From positions 32,001 to 96,000 of IMG/VR virus record IMGVR_UViG_3300033145_000192: DNA of 64,000 nucleotides; one strand, 5' to 3'. The first letter of the stretch is position 1, and the number at the start of each line of letters is the position of its first letter. The position numbers and the translations under genes are program-made. Shown one piece after another: positions 3,653-24,458 of the stretch. The notes below the pieces were generated by a model. That model saw only the letters and a list, made by a program, of their open reading frames with translations, was not told where the DNA came from and searched no databases. The DNA is from a virus.

Positions 3653-3722
3653 GCAAACCACTCTTAATGGATAAGAATTTGGCTTAAAACCAAGCATAGC
3701 GGGTTCGATTCCCGCACCTTTA
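3653..3722 (+). pseudogene. tRNA-Leu(TAA)-like remnant with unpaired acceptor stem
   Basis: D-arm tctt..aaga, ttgg-ctTAAaa-ccaa and T-arm gcggg-ttcgatt-cccgc are intact; flanks do not pair. Confidence 0.55.
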
Positions 3723-6956: not shown

Positions 6957-7970
6957 TTGCGAATGCATATGCGGGAATGTTTGACGTTCGACGATGTATC
7001 ACTTCAACCTCAGTATTCTGAGATATCTTCTAGAGAAGATGTTGTGTTGCATTGCGGCGAGGAACTCAAAAGGTTCTTAAATGTGCCGATTCTTTCGGCA
7101 AACATGAAAAGCATTACCGGCGTAAGTATGTGCCACGCTATGCAGAAGTCTGGTGGCGTGGGAGTTTTACACAGGTTCCATAAGAATGAACACTTCCTGC
7201 GCTCAGACTTGTCTGTTCTAGCAGATACCGGATGTTTCTTTATTCCATCTATCGGAGTGAATGAAACTGAGCTTTGGAAGCTAGAACACTATGCTCAGGC
7301 GGGTTGCAAAGCAATTTGCATTGACGTTGCTCACGGACACCACAAGAAGGTGTGCGAAATGATTCTCAGTGCCAGGCAGGCGATGCCTGAAGCGGTAATA
7401 ATAGCTGGGAATGTCGCCACAAAGGGAGCTACGAGACTTTTGTGTATTGCTGGGGCTGATATCATAAAGGTAGGTATCGGGCCTGGCAGTCATTGCACGA
7501 CTAGAATTGTAACTGGCCACGGGATACCGCAACTAACTGCAATCCTCGACTGTTCGCTAGAAGCGTCCTATCACGAGAAATGCACCATAGCTGATGGAGG
7601 GCTTAGAAATTCAGGAGATATGGCAAAGGCCCTAGCGGCTGGAGCTAGATACCTAATGGTTGGACGCCTGCTTGCGCCAGCTACGGAATCAAATGCAAAG
7701 CTGGTTTACAGAAACGGACGGGCATTTAAGGTCTACATGGGCAGTGCTTCGCATGAAGCGAGAAAGCGAAGTAAATACATAGAGGGTGTCCACTCAGAGG
7801 TTCCATACAACGGTCAGTCTGTTAGCGACATCATTGATGAGCTTTCCGCTGGCTTGAGAAGCTCACTCAGCTACAGTGGCACGCAGAACCTTGAAGAATT
7901 TAGGAAGCATAGAATCTTTGTTAGAATCACTCACAACAGCTACATAGAAGGAACACCACATGGACTCTGA
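6957..7970 (+). CDS. guaB: IMP dehydrogenase / GMP reductase family, no CBS domains
   Basis: LTFDDV, PILSANM, IDVAHGH, IAGNVAT, KVGIGPGSHCTTR, IADGG, YMGSAS, GLRSSLSYSG. Confidence 0.85.
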   Translation: MRMHMRECLTFDDVSLQPQYSEISSREDVVLHCGEELKRFLNVPILSANMKSITGVSMCHAMQKSGGVGVLHRFHKNEHFLRSDLSVLADTGCFFIPSIGVNETELWKLEHYAQAGCKAICIDVAHGHHKKVCEMILSARQAMPEAVIIAGNVATKGATRLLCIAGADIIKVGIGPGSHCTTRIVTGHGIPQLTAILDCSLEASYHEKCTIADGGLRNSGDMAKALAAGARYLMVGRLLAPATESNAKLVYRNGRAFKVYMGSASHEARKRSKYIEGVHSEVPYNGQSVSDIIDELSAGLRSSLSYSGTQNLEEFRKHRIFVRITHNSYIEGTPHGL

Positions 7971-8779: not shown

Positions 8780-9424
8780 ATGAAAACATATCCGTCAATA
8801 GAGTCTGCAAATTGTGCCAACAAGAGCATAAGCATCATAGCCTTTGACAAGCTAGATGGGTCGAATATCCGTGCCGAATGGAGCGCCAAGCGGGGCTTCT
8901 ACAAATTCGGAACAAGACGAAGGATGATTGACCACACTGACCCTCACCTTGGCCGAGCCGTATTGCTAATCAAAGCTAAGTTCGAGAAAGACTTGGACAA
9001 GGTTTTTCGTCGCGCAAAGCCCATACAACGATTTCAGAAAGGCGCAGTTTGCTTCTTTGAGTTCTTCGGTCCTAGGAGTTTTGCTGGGCAACATGCAAAA
9101 GATGACGAGCACGACATTGTTCTCATTGATGTTGCACCAAACAAGGCTGGACTGATACCTCCAAGAGAGTTCATCAAACTGTTCGGCCATTTGCACATCC
9201 CAGAGATTGTATACGAGGGGCGAGCCGGAAAAGAATTCATTGAGAAAGTTCAGCGTGGCGAGCTTAAAGGCATGACGTTTGAAGGCGTTGTGTGTAAGGC
9301 TCCCAATCCCAATAGGAAAAAGACATCCCAGCCAGTGATGTTCAAGGTAAAGTCTCACGCCTGGCTTGAGCGACTCCGAACATTCTGTGCCGATGACGCA
9401 AAACAGTTTGAGAGATTAGCATGA
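8780..9424 (+). CDS. RNA ligase-like covalent nucleotidyltransferase (Rnl2-type adenylation domain)
   Basis: Motif I DKLDGSN, FFEFFG, motif IV FEGVVCK, motif V FKVKS. Confidence 0.75.
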   Translation: MKTYPSIESANCANKSISIIAFDKLDGSNIRAEWSAKRGFYKFGTRRRMIDHTDPHLGRAVLLIKAKFEKDLDKVFRRAKPIQRFQKGAVCFFEFFGPRSFAGQHAKDDEHDIVLIDVAPNKAGLIPPREFIKLFGHLHIPEIVYEGRAGKEFIEKVQRGELKGMTFEGVVCKAPNPNRKKTSQPVMFKVKSHAWLERLRTFCADDAKQFERLA

Positions 9425-12191: not shown

Positions 12192-12275
12192 GGGCCGGTG
12201 GCGGAATTGGCAGACGCGCAGGGTTTAGGACCCTGTTCCCTTCGGGGAGTGAGGGTTCGAGTCCCTCTCGGCCCA
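12192..12275 (+). tRNA. tRNA-Leu(TAG), canonical class II
   Basis: ggtggcggaattggcagacgcg; long variable arm. Confidence 0.95.
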
Positions 12276-12500: not shown

Positions 12501-12528
12501 TTGAATGTCAGGGGCATCGACCTATAAT
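12501..12528 (+). promoter_or_regulatory. Sigma70-like promoter TTGAAT-N16-TATAAT
   Basis: 48 nt upstream of ATG 12577; gaggagagg RBS follows. Confidence 0.65.
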
Positions 12529-12576: not shown

Positions 12577-13320
12577 ATGACGAAGAAGGAAACCAAGCTC
12601 AACCAGGTTCTCGCAATCGAAAAGGGCGTCAAGGCACGCACCAGCGGAACTGTCACCAAGCTCTATCACATGGTCCAGAAGCCAGTTTTGCTGGTCGGAC
12701 TAGCGAAGAACTATCAGCCTCTAAACGAGGATGGCCAGCACTATCCACCTGAGCGTCAGAGGGTTCAGGTCAGGGCAGAGGATACTCTCAAGGATACCCG
12801 AAAGGCTCTTGCAGAGTTGTTTGATATCACAGCCAGGAAGGACTGGGCAAACTGTGAGGCTAGGGCTGCGGTCGTGGTCAATGGCCAGGAGCTTGTTTCC
12901 AACGTCCCAGTAACGTATCTGCTCTTCCTCGAAAAGCAGCTTACCGACCTTCGCACCCTAGTCTCCAAGATTCCGGTCTTGGATGGTTCCGAGGAATGGA
13001 AGATGGACCTGGCAACAGGGCTCCATAAGACAGACCCAACCAAGACTACTAGGACTCAAAAGGTCCAGAAGCCAATCGTCCTTTATGATGCGACCGAGGA
13101 GCATCCAGCACAAACTCAGCTAATCACTGAGGACATTGTTGTAGGACATTGGACCACGGTGAAGCAGTCAGGTGCGCTACAGGCCGACCGAAAGGTTGAT
13201 GTGCTTGAGCGTATTGAGACTCTGCTAGAGGCAGTCAAGTTTGCCCGTGAAACGGCGAACAGCAATGATGCGCCAAAGCAGCAGGTTGCTGACGCTTTGT
13301 TCGGATACATCTTGGGCTAA
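12577..13320 (+). CDS. Conserved uncharacterised 247-aa protein (recalled as DUF7873-like), directly upstream of the permuted tRNA-like RNA
   Basis: KLNQVLAIEKG, LFDITARKDWANCEARA, VPVTYLLFLEKQLTDL, EATEEHPAQ, AVKFARETAN; family label from memory. Confidence 0.7.
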   Translation: MTKKETKLNQVLAIEKGVKARTSGTVTKLYHMVQKPVLLVGLAKNYQPLNEDGQHYPPERQRVQVRAEDTLKDTRKALAELFDITARKDWANCEARAAVVVNGQELVSNVPVTYLLFLEKQLTDLRTLVSKIPVLDGSEEWKMDLATGLHKTDPTKTTRTQKVQKPIVLYDATEEHPAQTQLITEDIVVGHWTTVKQSGALQADRKVDVLERIETLLEAVKFARETANSNDAPKQQVADALFGYILG

Positions 13321-13403
13321 GGCTCAAGTAAGGCTCGGTCGTCTAAATAAAAAGACTCCCCTCATAGGGAGGGGCAATGTAGGTGAAAGTCCTACCTGAG
13401 TCA
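13321..13403 (+). ncRNA. Degenerate class-II-tRNA-like cloverleaf abutting the CDS stop
   Basis: ggctca/tgagtc closing stem; gtct/agac arm; cccctc/gagggg arm; gtagg-tgaaagt-cctac T-loop arm. Confidence 0.45.
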
Positions 13404-13405
13404 TA

Positions 13406-13572
13406 AGGATAACAGACTGAATCTTAGATTTAGACTGAATGGCGATATGTCATTGGAGGTTCGAATCCTTCCCTGCCCAATACGTGGGCGGGTTCCCAAA
13501 CTGGCAAAGGGAACGGCGGTAACTAACCCGTCGTTGACAAAATATCGTGCTTTAGACTTAGCTTATTATCCT
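13406..13572 (+). ncRNA. Circularly permuted tRNA-like module 1 (break in the variable arm)
   Basis: Order T-arm 13455-71, acceptor 13472-79/13485-92 closed by atacg, D-arm 13493-513, hairpin 13514-33; enclosed by cgatat/atatcg and aggataa/ttatcct. Confidence 0.75.
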
Positions 13573-13573
13573 A

Positions 13574-13817
13574 AGTTGAGTATCGCAGGAGGTAGCTATA
13601 TCAAATGTAACTGACAAACCAAGCCTGAGACACGGGTTCGAATCCCGTCTGGTCGATTGGACTGACAGCTTGTCTGTCGGACTGAACAGTGAGTAAGGGG
13701 AAACACACAAAACTTCCTATAACGACCGGTAGCTTAGTGGCAAAGCGTAGGTTTTCAGATTAACGCAGTTACTTAAACGTCGATAGTTACGTAATGTGCC
13801 TGTAACCAATATTGACT
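13574..13817 (+). ncRNA. Circularly permuted tRNA-like module 2 (break in the anticodon arm, YrlA-like topology)
   Basis: T-arm 13632-48, acceptor 13649-55/13723-29 with 67-nt insert, D-arm ta-gctt-agtggca-aagc-g, gcctg/taggt, then rod gtaactg/cagttac, gtagctat/atagttac, gcagg/cctgt, agtat/atatt. Confidence 0.75.
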
Positions 13818-13874
13818 AACATCATAATTGTTAAAGGGGGCGGCGAACACGGTTAGGTTTCTCGCCCCCATTTC

Positions 13875-13946
13875 GACCTTATCGTCCAACGGATAGGACA
13901 GGAGTTTCCTAAACTTCAAATCTGGGTTCGAATCCCAGTAGGGTCA
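13875..13946 (+). tRNA. tRNA-Arg(CCT)
   Basis: ggagt-ttCCTaa-acttc. Confidence 0.9.
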
Positions 13947-14016
13947 TTTCAAAACTAGCTGATTGAAACCATTTGTCCTAGGCAACATTTGGAAGTAGAT
14001 GTTACGGTTTGGGAGT

Positions 14017-14087
14017 AGGGTCGTAGTGTAATAGCAACATACCCGTCGTTGAGGCGGGAGATGCGGGTGCAACTCCCGTCGAGTCTG
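14017..14087 (+). tRNA. Atypical tRNA, Gln(TTG)-like, with G33 or a 5-nt loop and an acceptor mismatch
   Basis: cccgtc-gttga-ggcggg arm; T-loop tgcaact; G-G mismatch in the acceptor. Confidence 0.55.
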
Positions 14088-14249
14088 TAGGAGTAATCAT
14101 GGCAATTGATATTGAGCACTGGTTTAAGAAAGTAAAGAGGTCTAAGGGACACCACGTAAGCAGAATGCAAGTTCCCCCAAATACAATGCAAGAACTCCTA
14201 GAAGAACTAAAAGCACTGAGACCGGCACCAAAGCCAGTGGAAGAAGAGT

Positions 14250-23665: not shown

Positions 23666-24199
23666 TTATATCTCCAGTATTCTCACGCACTTACAAGGTC
23701 GATGTTGAGTCAGTTCGACCTTCAGAGACATTGGCTCAGGGTGACACGTATTCCACACCTCCCCAAGTTTGTTACCCTCAAGCTCGACCGTGCTGCGGGC
23801 TCTCTTGGGCGTAGGGAGATTCTTCATCTTTCCCTTAACCTTGACCCGCCTACTGGCACGCTGCGAGTTCTTGAACTCCTTACTGGGCTCAACCTTCAGC
23901 TTCTTTGGCCTACATGGCGATGGCAAAAAGGTAACTACCCCTCTACCAAAGCAATTCTTGCAGTTCTTCCTGGCATAAAGCACATTGCGGGGCTTTTTGA
24001 TATCAACTGAATCGGGGTCAACACCCAGAGCTTCCGCTGCTTGTTTCAAACCATCTGCGGCCTCATCGGACGTAAAGATACCATCCCCATCAAGAGCCTC
24101 AACAAATGCGGCCTCCAGGGCTTCTATCTTCCTACGGTCCTCTTCCGTTAGTTCCTTCTTAGCCTTCTCAGGCTTCTCTACGTTCTTATTCATTTCCAT
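23666..24199 (-). CDS. Hypothetical protein with DnaJ-type CxxCxGxG motif
   Basis: CKNCFGRG; terminal CKC. Confidence 0.55.
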   Translation of the reverse strand: MEMNKNVEKPEKAKKELTEEDRRKIEALEAAFVEALDGDGIFTSDEAADGLKQAAEALGVDPDSVDIKKPRNVLYARKNCKNCFGRGVVTFLPSPCRPKKLKVEPSKEFKNSQRASRRVKVKGKMKNLPTPKRARSTVELEGNKLGEVWNTCHPEPMSLKVELTQHRPCKCVRILEI

Positions 24200-24458
24200 T
24201 CCTAAAACTCCCTTGTTTCAGTAGACGTTTTATTCTGTCTATCTGCTCCCTATACCCCATGATATCCTCAATGACCTCGTTATAGGCCACCTCGGCATCT
24301 TCAGCTATCCAAGAACCTTCGGTCTTCCATTCGTCCCCGCGCACGGTATTTCGATAAGCAAGAACTTCACGATACCATCTAACAGCAGCGCGGTAGTTCT
24401 TTTTCGTTTGCATCAAAGTTCCGAGCAACTTTTCTCTCGATGGCTTTGTGGACATCAA
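24186..24458 (-). CDS. Hypothetical coiled-coil protein
   Basis: 90 aa, in operon. Confidence 0.5.
   Translation of the reverse strand: MMSTKPSREKLLGTLMQTKKNYRAAVRWYREVLAYRNTVRGDEWKTEGSWIAEDAEVAYNEVIEDIMGYREQIDRIKRLLKQGSFRNGNE

Follow-up and report, generated by a model that had tools for sequence, protein, structure and literature searches.

Can tRNA arms that are encoded in the wrong order still give rise to a decoding tRNA, or do they build a tRNA shape that is used in some other way? The question is raised by positions 13406-13572, here called module 1, of a 64,000-nt stretch of phage DNA (the window; IMG/VR record IMGVR_UViG_3300033145_000192). The window covers bases 32001-96000 of the complete 177,375-bp genome of an uncultured phage with direct terminal repeats, and module 1 lies in it downstream of a gene of the DUF7873 family; positions below are those of the window unless the genome is named. 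A sequence-only reading had taken module 1 for a permuted tRNA-like structure broken in the variable arm, which might be circularized and opened in its acceptor loop to yield a tRNA reading amber or frameshifted codons and would otherwise be a non-decoding mimic. It is the latter, fallback reading that our analysis favors. We are confident that module 1 mimics a class II-like tRNA in permuted order, with the opening at its variable arm, and we suggest, with moderate confidence, that it is part of an undescribed RNA-protein particle associated with DUF7873 and independent of Ro60.

The fold of module 1

The minimum-energy and centroid structures predicted by RNAfold for 13406-13572 are both the five-way junction described by the sequence-only reading, and each of the stems noted in the letters is found at the same position in the predicted fold. 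The fold energy is -58.6 kcal/mol, compared with -40.7 +/- 3.9 kcal/mol in dinucleotide shuffles (z = -4.65), and none of 200 shuffles was as stable. The extents first given for the T arm, the hairpin in the anticodon-arm position and the terminal stems hold, and those of two other stems need trimming. The acceptor hairpin can be drawn with 8 bp (cctgccca 13472-79, loop atacg 13480-84, tgggcggg 13485-92); however, only 7 bp are conserved in homologues, the eighth pair, A-T, being confined to this phage. Likewise, 3 bp of the D stem (ccc/ggg) are conserved and the flanking tt/aa pairs are not. An inner 4-bp helix (gtca 13449-52/tgac 13535-38) sits between the outer closing stem and the core, beside an AAA bulge.

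The order of the parts, namely T arm, loop-closed acceptor stem, D arm and anticodon-position hairpin, is thus permuted relative to a tRNA, as had been proposed, and both the fold and the covariation described below bear this out. When the first modules of homologous loci were separated by a rule-based parse, two forms emerged. In the commoner one, typical of Streptomyces, the sequence that follows the D arm pairs with a strand located 5-6 nt ahead of the T arm and forms an open anticodon-type stem, resembling YrlA, a tRNA-mimicking Y RNA that is bound by bacterial and phage Ro60/Rsr (PMC4201824; bioRxiv 10.1101/312249). In the form seen in the window, a closed hairpin follows the D arm after 0-2 nt and is itself followed by the closing helix, the 5' strand of which ends 1-3 nt before the T stem. 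Of 135 unique first modules, 30 have both the hairpin and the closing helix, whereas shuffled sequence would give 4.4. The geometry of this form is that of a class II tRNA with five helices, in which the hairpin takes the place of the anticodon arm and the closing helix that of the long variable arm. The break in the variable arm was therefore correctly placed: it is at this class II position that the RNA chain enters and leaves. A third topology, in which the variable-arm hairpin is closed and the anticodon stem is open, was also considered; it looks convincing in loci L087, L141 and L345, but as a class its 8 cases, against 4.8 expected, are not above chance.

The likeness to class II tRNAs extends to the letters. 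The pattern of T loop and acceptor 3' strand seen in module 1 occurs at 109 places in viral contigs, and 90 of the 95 ARAGORN-called tRNAs that carry it in the fetched loci are tRNA-Tyr(GTA); the acceptor 3' strand, together with the A that follows it (A73 in tRNA numbering), has the sequence that phage tRNA-Tyr typically shows there. For the D arms of the hairpin-bearing form, the highest scores are obtained with tRNA-Leu, and module 1 shares with bacterial tRNA-Tyr and tRNA-Leu a 3-bp D stem, a long D loop and five core helices, one of them at the long-variable-arm position. Unlike those tRNAs, it has a closed acceptor end and an open variable arm, and the stem in the anticodon position is 6-8 bp long with an unconstrained loop.

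Conservation and covariation

A MAFFT alignment of 26 homologues was used to identify invariant positions. These include the G-G-T-T-C-x-A core of the T loop, the U8-like T, the two As that open the D loop, one G of the GG pair and two further As (alignment positions T55, A61, A62, G66, A68 and A70 for the D arm). The invariant nucleotides of module 1 are those that build the elbow and core of a tRNA.

A covariance model built from the module 1 of the window alone, with the structure supplied by hand, gave 66 matches in 60 sources; within the window it matched module 1 and none of the 28 tRNAs. Across the 66 homologues, 95.6% of cells form standard pairs; this figure drops to 59.1% with shuffled 3' letters and to 44-48% with partners moved by one to three columns. 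Changes on both sides are seen in 30 of the 31 pairs. The paired fraction is 86.9% for the outer closing helix, 88.3% for the inner one, 99.4% for the T stem, 99.1% for the acceptor stem, 100% for the D stem and 95.4% for the anticodon-position hairpin. Every pair of the two closing helices changes on both sides, and all seven acceptor pairs and all six hairpin pairs covary. The sequence-only reading had made its case depend on the presence and covariation of the hairpin at 13514-13533 in homologues, and the hairpin is indeed both present and covarying.

The closest relatives examined are two metagenomic loci, L280 (69% protein identity) and L281 (65%); homologues at 75-79% (P0002-P0005) lie outside the set. 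RNAalifold, applied to a sequence-only alignment of the window with these two, recovered the outer stem, the 5' hairpin, the T arm, the acceptor stem, the D arm and the anticodon-position hairpin. In this alignment of three, 11 pairs are predicted for the 5' hairpin at 13413-13437, a conserved element absent from the sequence-only reading, seven of them changed on both sides, and the outer stem is retained with altered letters in both L281 and L280. When 13300-14100 was compared by blastn with 50,697 phage records, no match was obtained.

Gene linkage with DUF7873

The gene that precedes module 1 belongs to Pfam family PF25283 (DUF7873; E = 7.4e-100), and its homologues at 57-79% identity number more than 3,000. 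We fetched 80 viral, 80 genomic and 80 metagenomic loci, the genomic set spanning at least five bacterial phyla and including Streptomyces, Myxococcota, Planctomycetota, Abditibacteriota and Acidobacteriota, and counted linkage in the 188 that extend at least 650 nt downstream of the gene (73 viral, 76 genomic and 39 metagenomic). To be scored as a permuted module, a site had to combine a T arm with a closed acceptor stem of 7 bp and the signature of a D arm. By this measure, the gene is followed on the same strand, within 650 nt, by one or more permuted modules in 176 of the 188 loci and by two or more in 120; in the controls, the count was 4 for the upstream side and 1 for the reverse complement. 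The window conforms to this arrangement, with DUF7873 ending at 13320 and T arms beginning at 13455 in module 1 and, in tandem on the same strand, at 13632 in a second module. The order of DUF7873 followed by two modules is repeated in viral contig L009, and the module pair is also present in L087, a viral contig of 251 kb. All three share a CTTAAACGYC motif after module 2 (13773-13782 in the window). The gene neighbors checked at four bacterial DUF7873 loci vary from one to the next. In L009, the DUF7873 cassette is preceded, at a distance of about 2 kb, by a gene resembling IS605 OrfB/TnpB (PF01385, PF07282; positions 2-865).

The tRNA shapes could in principle be processing signals and nothing more, recruiting RNase P and RNase Z to free the DUF7873 message in the manner of t-elements, with the excised RNA having no function. 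The location of the locus between tRNA-Leu (12192-12275) and tRNA-Arg (13875-13946) would suit such a role, as would the many tRNA-shaped hairpins found between genes elsewhere in the phage. However, bacterial chromosomes whose neighboring genes, where examined, differ between loci have the same elaborate two-module RNA after DUF7873, and this RNA has covarying rods, the conserved CTTAAACGYC motif and conserved tertiary nucleotides of the D arm. A cut site needs neither a D arm, nor a hairpin in the anticodon position, nor a second module, and we regard this explanation as improbable.

The protein offers few clues of its own. Its structure is predicted with confidence (predicted local distance difference test, pLDDT, 85.6), and a Foldseek search of the PDB returned nothing at E <= 0.001, weak Cas7/Cascade rows having a TM score of about 0.13. 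A wide structure search by VIA gave generic helical matches only (Z <= 9), the ESM Atlas gave DUF7873 clusters only, PHROGs and NCBIfam contained no family for the protein, and PADLOC returned one insignificant row. A search of 8.4 million full texts for "DUF7873" found no match.

The hairpin in the anticodon-arm position

If module 1 were a genuine permuted tRNA gene, its transcript would be circularized and opened in the acceptor loop, and the expanded loop at 13520-13527 would read amber or four-base codons. The arm order is the right one for this, the body resembles tRNA-Tyr, and the loop contains CTA, as in the classical tyrosine amber suppressors. Permuted tRNA genes are known in Cyanidioschyzon merolae and Thermofilum pendens, where, as here, the 3' half is encoded upstream of the 5' half and a short linker joins the acceptor strands. 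Those tRNAs decode, and are produced via a bulge-helix-bulge, a splicing endonuclease and a ligase; module 1, in contrast, has no conserved bulge-helix-bulge and no canonical anticodon arm, and its hosts are bacterial. Bacteria and their phages are not known to have the splicing endonuclease of archaea and eukaryotes. The 4-bp helix beside a 3-nt bulge in the window faintly recalls half of a bulge-helix-bulge, but there is no second bulge on the other strand, and the bulge itself is absent from most homologues, whose closing helices run continuously for 4-8 bp.

The loop and stem of the hairpin point away from decoding. Conservation of the 8-nt loop had been suggested as a check, and it is not observed: in homologues the loop ranges from about 3 to 15 nt, including the tetraloops GAAG, GTAA, TGCG and GAAA, and it differs even in the closest relatives, being TAAACT in L281 (6 nt, on a nearly identical stem) and AGACGGAG in L280. 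The CTA is not conserved. The stem is 6-8 bp long and not 5, and the 8-nt loop has an A in place of U33. ARAGORN found no tRNA in an un-permuted version of the sequence, in which the halves were put in normal order and the closing helix was capped. Nor does the phage show any sign of stop-codon reassignment: stop-to-stop open reading frames (ORFs) of at least 100 aa in the standard code cover 90% of the genome, and the 280 long ORFs end in TAA (96), TAG (92) and TGA (92), so that TAG is an ordinary stop codon, used as often as TGA. Because the loop is free to vary, the stem is too long, the un-permuted sequence is not called as a tRNA and no stop codon is reassigned, the decoding idea is unsupported, and a genuine permuted decoding tRNA is close to refuted. 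From the pattern of conservation, the hairpin appears to be a structural strut in which selection acts on the helix and not on the loop.

Two other features of the loop were considered and set aside. The segment G-TAACTA (13519-25) is perfectly complementary to TAGTTAC at 13784-90, which could suggest loop docking; however, a 7-nt loop match of this kind was equalled by 29 of 200 shuffled loops, no equivalent exists in the closest relatives, and the partner sites in other loci have no fixed place. Triplets complementary to stop codons (CUA, UUA and UCA) occur in 8-nt UANYWAAY loops in the window and in L152, L158, L150 and L169. We do not count these as evidence because the independent cases are few, the loops are A/U-rich and the geometry is wrong.

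Comparison with YrlA RNAs

YrlA is, of the RNA families described so far, the one nearest to module 1 (Chen et al. 2014, PMC4201824; bioRxiv 10.1101/312249). Both have a T arm, a loop-closed acceptor-like stem and a D arm in this order, with the nucleotides of the tRNA elbow; in both, this domain sits on a longer helix made from the 5' and 3' parts of the RNA; in both, the RNAs or modules come as an adjacent pair beside a protein gene; and in Mycobacterium smegmatis YrlA also has a 7-bp acceptor stem, which is processed there. Given these likenesses, module 1 could be a classical YrlA-type Y RNA that uses an Ro60 (Rsr) protein encoded by the host, the more so as phage YrlA RNAs are known (PMC4201824) and YrlA is the sole Rfam family not related to tRNA that aligns across module 1.

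The alignment, however, is weak. At gathering thresholds Rfam found tRNAs only; when the search was relaxed to E = 10, YrlA (RF02553) aligned to 13439-13540 with 15.5 bits (E = 3.6), against a gathering threshold of 69, and no self-cleaving ribozyme was found. The best YrlA score anywhere in the phage is 23.7 bits. Neither form of the Ro60-binding motif GNCGAA(N0-1)G is matched on either strand of 13321-13875. No TROVE/Ro60 gene (PF05731) was found in the complete 177-kb phage genome, control genomes being positive, and none among 10 neighboring ORFs at four bacterial DUF7873 loci. The invariant neighbor here is DUF7873, and the two modules are apparently carried on one RNA. Moreover, the connecting helix of module 1 exits at the variable-arm position, and a closed hairpin occupies the anticodon arm, whereas in YrlA itself the equivalent of the anticodon stem is the connecting helix. 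Module 1 thus departs from YrlA in every testable defining feature except the fold, and we consider its membership of that family very unlikely. The highest YrlA score in the analysis, 31.6 bits, belongs to a separate element at 5141-5292 of L122, a 392-kb viral contig, about 1.8 kb past the DUF7873 cassette.

Possible opening of the acceptor loop

Whether the acceptor loop is cut is a separate matter from decoding. Two-piece transfer-messenger RNA (tmRNA), made from a permuted ssrA gene in alpha-proteobacteria and cyanobacteria, provides a bacterial precedent: it too derives from a permuted tRNA-like gene, and its acceptor loop is excised to leave a functional nicked molecule without ligation. 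Unlike tmRNA, module 1 has no G3-U70 pair (position 3-70 is G-C) and no tag reading frame. ARAGORN called no tmRNA in the window, Rfam gave no tmRNA match on module 1, and the phage has an ordinary, separate tmRNA at 23699-24065 of its genome. In the region 23699-24207 of the genome, the tmRNA specifies a 24-residue tag and adjoins an ARAGORN tRNA call with a four-base anticodon, tccg.

By analogy, a two-piece tRNA-like RNA might be formed here by RNase P cleavage before G13486, 3' trimming to A13479 and CCA addition by the host. The product would be nicked, held together by the acceptor and closing helices, and might be aminoacylated without decoding; such a fate is compatible with a role in a ribonucleoprotein. 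A 7-bp acceptor stem stacked on a T arm is a minimal RNase P substrate, and M. smegmatis YrlA, with its 7-bp stem, is cut in vitro by RNase P and has CCA added in vivo (PMC4201824). Among homologues, 78 of 99 first modules have A as the discriminator, the three bases after the discriminator are CCA in 37 of 99 first modules and in 36 of 99 second ones (about 1.6% would be expected by chance), and acceptor loops accept inserts of up to 106 nt. In the window, however, the acceptor loop reads A-ATACGT, so that the discriminator is followed by neither CCA nor C. The loop is one of a subgroup in which the caps are of the UACG type (ATACGA, ATACGC and ATACGG in L281, L282 and L009, respectively) that look built for staying closed. 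No CCA-adding enzyme and no RtcB are encoded by the phage, which does encode an RNA-ligase-domain ORF (8780-9424; PF09414, E = 5.6e-7), embedded in the tRNA array. Cleavage within the acceptor loop of module 1 is plausible by comparison with YrlA, and we give the two-piece RNA as a whole some chance of being correct, while thinking it unlikely.

A proposed DUF7873-associated ribonucleoprotein

We suggest that a single non-coding RNA of about 550 nt (13321-13870), transcribed after the DUF7873 gene and probably together with it, would carry both tRNA-mimic domains. Module 1 copies the upper body of a class II (Tyr/Leu-like) tRNA, with its T arm, capped 7-bp acceptor stem and D arm; its hairpin stacks at the position of the anticodon stem, and the helix at the variable-arm position continues into a longer rod of stems. 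The two tRNA-shaped heads could then be presented to DUF7873, to host factors that recognize the tRNA elbow and acceptor, or to both, and the resulting ribonucleoprotein would work independently of Ro60, by analogy with YrlA-type Y RNAs and Ro60. The sequences themselves show the fold, its conservation and covariation, and the linkage to the gene; transcription as one RNA, binding by DUF7873 and any processing are steps that we infer. This is the explanation that we hold to be probable on balance.

Several points weigh against it. The tie between DUF7873 and the RNA is purely positional, and the protein model has no informative structural match and no recognizable RNA-binding domain. Since the loci were gathered from the protein side, as best-scoring relatives, the 94% linkage may fail to extend to more distant members of the family. 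The alignment used for covariation was fitted to the model structure and so favors that structure; nonetheless, the effect is clear in its size and in the slide control. Finally, the RNA lies inside a tRNA array in this phage, so it could simply be processed like its neighbors.

A more speculative variant of the DUF7873-associated particle is a non-decoding carrier or sensor of aminoacyl groups that would be dedicated to this one protein and encoded as a cassette in phages and bacteria. Leucyl-tRNA synthetase is not known to read the anticodon, and the class II-tRNA synthetases of the host might charge an RNA that lacks a genuine one, with DUF7873 using or sensing the aminoacyl-RNA off the ribosome. 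We think it improbable that the cassette works in this way.

Organization of the locus

According to ARAGORN, the phage genome has 45 tRNA genes and one tmRNA, 28 of these tRNAs being in the window. Module 1 lies in the stretch between the end of the DUF7873 gene and tRNA-Arg(CCT), and from 13321 to 13954 there is no ORF of at least 60 aa; a promoter-like site is found upstream of the DUF7873 gene at 12501-12528. The features of the locus are collected in Table 1.

Table 1. Features of the DUF7873 locus (window positions)
Feature	Position	Strand	Remarks
DUF7873 gene	12577-13320	+	247 aa from the start shared with homologues; mechanical ORF begins at 12505
Putative non-coding RNA, leader	13321-13405	+	Hairpins 13356-13374 and 13379-13395 (from sequence)
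Outer stem, 5' strand	13406-13412	+	aggataa; pairs with 13566-13572; minimum-energy fold; inverted repeat I1
5' hairpin	13413-13437	+	From repeated AGACTGAAT motif; minimum-energy fold; direct repeat D5
Closing helix, 5' strand	13443-13452	+	cgatat 13443-48 (outer), gtca 13449-52 (inner); variable-arm position, 3' side
T arm	13455-13471	+	ggagg 13455-59, loop TTCGAAT, ccttc 13467-71
Acceptor-stem mimic	13472-13492	+	3' strand 13472-78, discriminator-like A 13479, loop 13480-85, 5' strand 13486-92
D arm	13493-13513	+	U8-like T 13493; 3-bp stem ccc/ggg; 11-nt loop with GG
Hairpin in anticodon-arm position	13514-13533	+	cggcgg 13514-19, loop taactaac 13520-27, ccgtcg 13528-33; stem 6-8 bp
Closing helix, 3' strand	13535-13547	+	tgac 13535-38, bulge aaa 13539-41, atatcg 13542-47
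Outer stem, 3' strand	13566-13572	+	ttatcct; minimum-energy fold; inverted repeat; RNAalifold
Module 2 of the same putative RNA	13607-13782	+	T arm 13632-48; D arm; conserved motif CTTAAACGTC
Module 2, helix	13607-13 and 13766-72	+	gtaactg/cagttac
Module 2, open anticodon-type stem	13623-27 and 13749-53	+	gcctg/taggt
Module 2, acceptor strands	13649-55 and 13724-30	+	ctggtcg/cgaccgg; 68-nt insert between
G+C-rich terminal hairpin	13836-13869	+	Inverted repeat I4; directly precedes tRNA-Arg(CCT)

The leader hairpin at 13379-13395 (gtagg-TGAAAGT-cctac; stem of 5 bp, loop of 7 nt) is shaped like a T arm, but its loop is degenerate. Because the leaders of L281 and L280 bear true T-loop hairpins (TTCGAAT/TTCGATT), the RNA leader may carry a third, decayed tRNA-like element. 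At the other end of the RNA, the terminal hairpin was not scored as a terminator by our scan because it has no T run. The insert in the module 2 acceptor (13656-13723) bears hairpins of its own (gactgacag/ctgtcgg), and L280 has a still longer insert at the same site. The rods on either side of the modules contain recurring short motifs, among them AGACTGAAT, TTTAGACT and AAGTTGAG, both in the window (13414-13440 and 13551-13581) and in distant relatives (3820-3845 of L009 and 2880-2910 of L087); these motifs may mark a periodic binding track.

Several further observations concern the tRNA array and other tRNA-like shapes in the phage. An IMPDH/GMP-reductase gene (6957-7970) is embedded in the array. 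Three segments that ARAGORN did not call (1218-1284, 3662-3715 and 14017-14087) match the Rfam tRNA model with 39, 34 and 39 bits, respectively, and may be unusual or degenerate tRNAs of the array. Outside the window, at 149800-152300 and 155450-160650 of the genome, a series of T-loop hairpins lies between small genes; these hairpins are flanked by copies of motifs resembling GACACGCA and CTGACACG and are not called as tRNAs.

Implications

Mimicry of tRNA by non-coding RNAs is known mainly from tmRNA, from the 3' ends of viral genomes and from Ro60-bound YrlA. The inside-out tRNA design described here goes with another protein, whose fold matches nothing informative; this protein is strongly conserved, with 57-79% identity across phyla, and is found in Streptomyces, Myxococcota, Planctomycetota, Acidobacteriota and Abditibacteriota, and in many large phages. 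What module 1 adds is that the connecting helix can exit either through the variable-arm position, with a closed hairpin at the anticodon position, or through the anticodon stem. Therefore, selection appears to act on the upper body formed by the acceptor, T and D arms, and on the helices, and not on a decoding loop, and this upper body shows which surface to probe. If DUF7873 does bind the RNA, the two would constitute a second, Ro-independent family of tRNA-mimic particles in bacteria and their phages.

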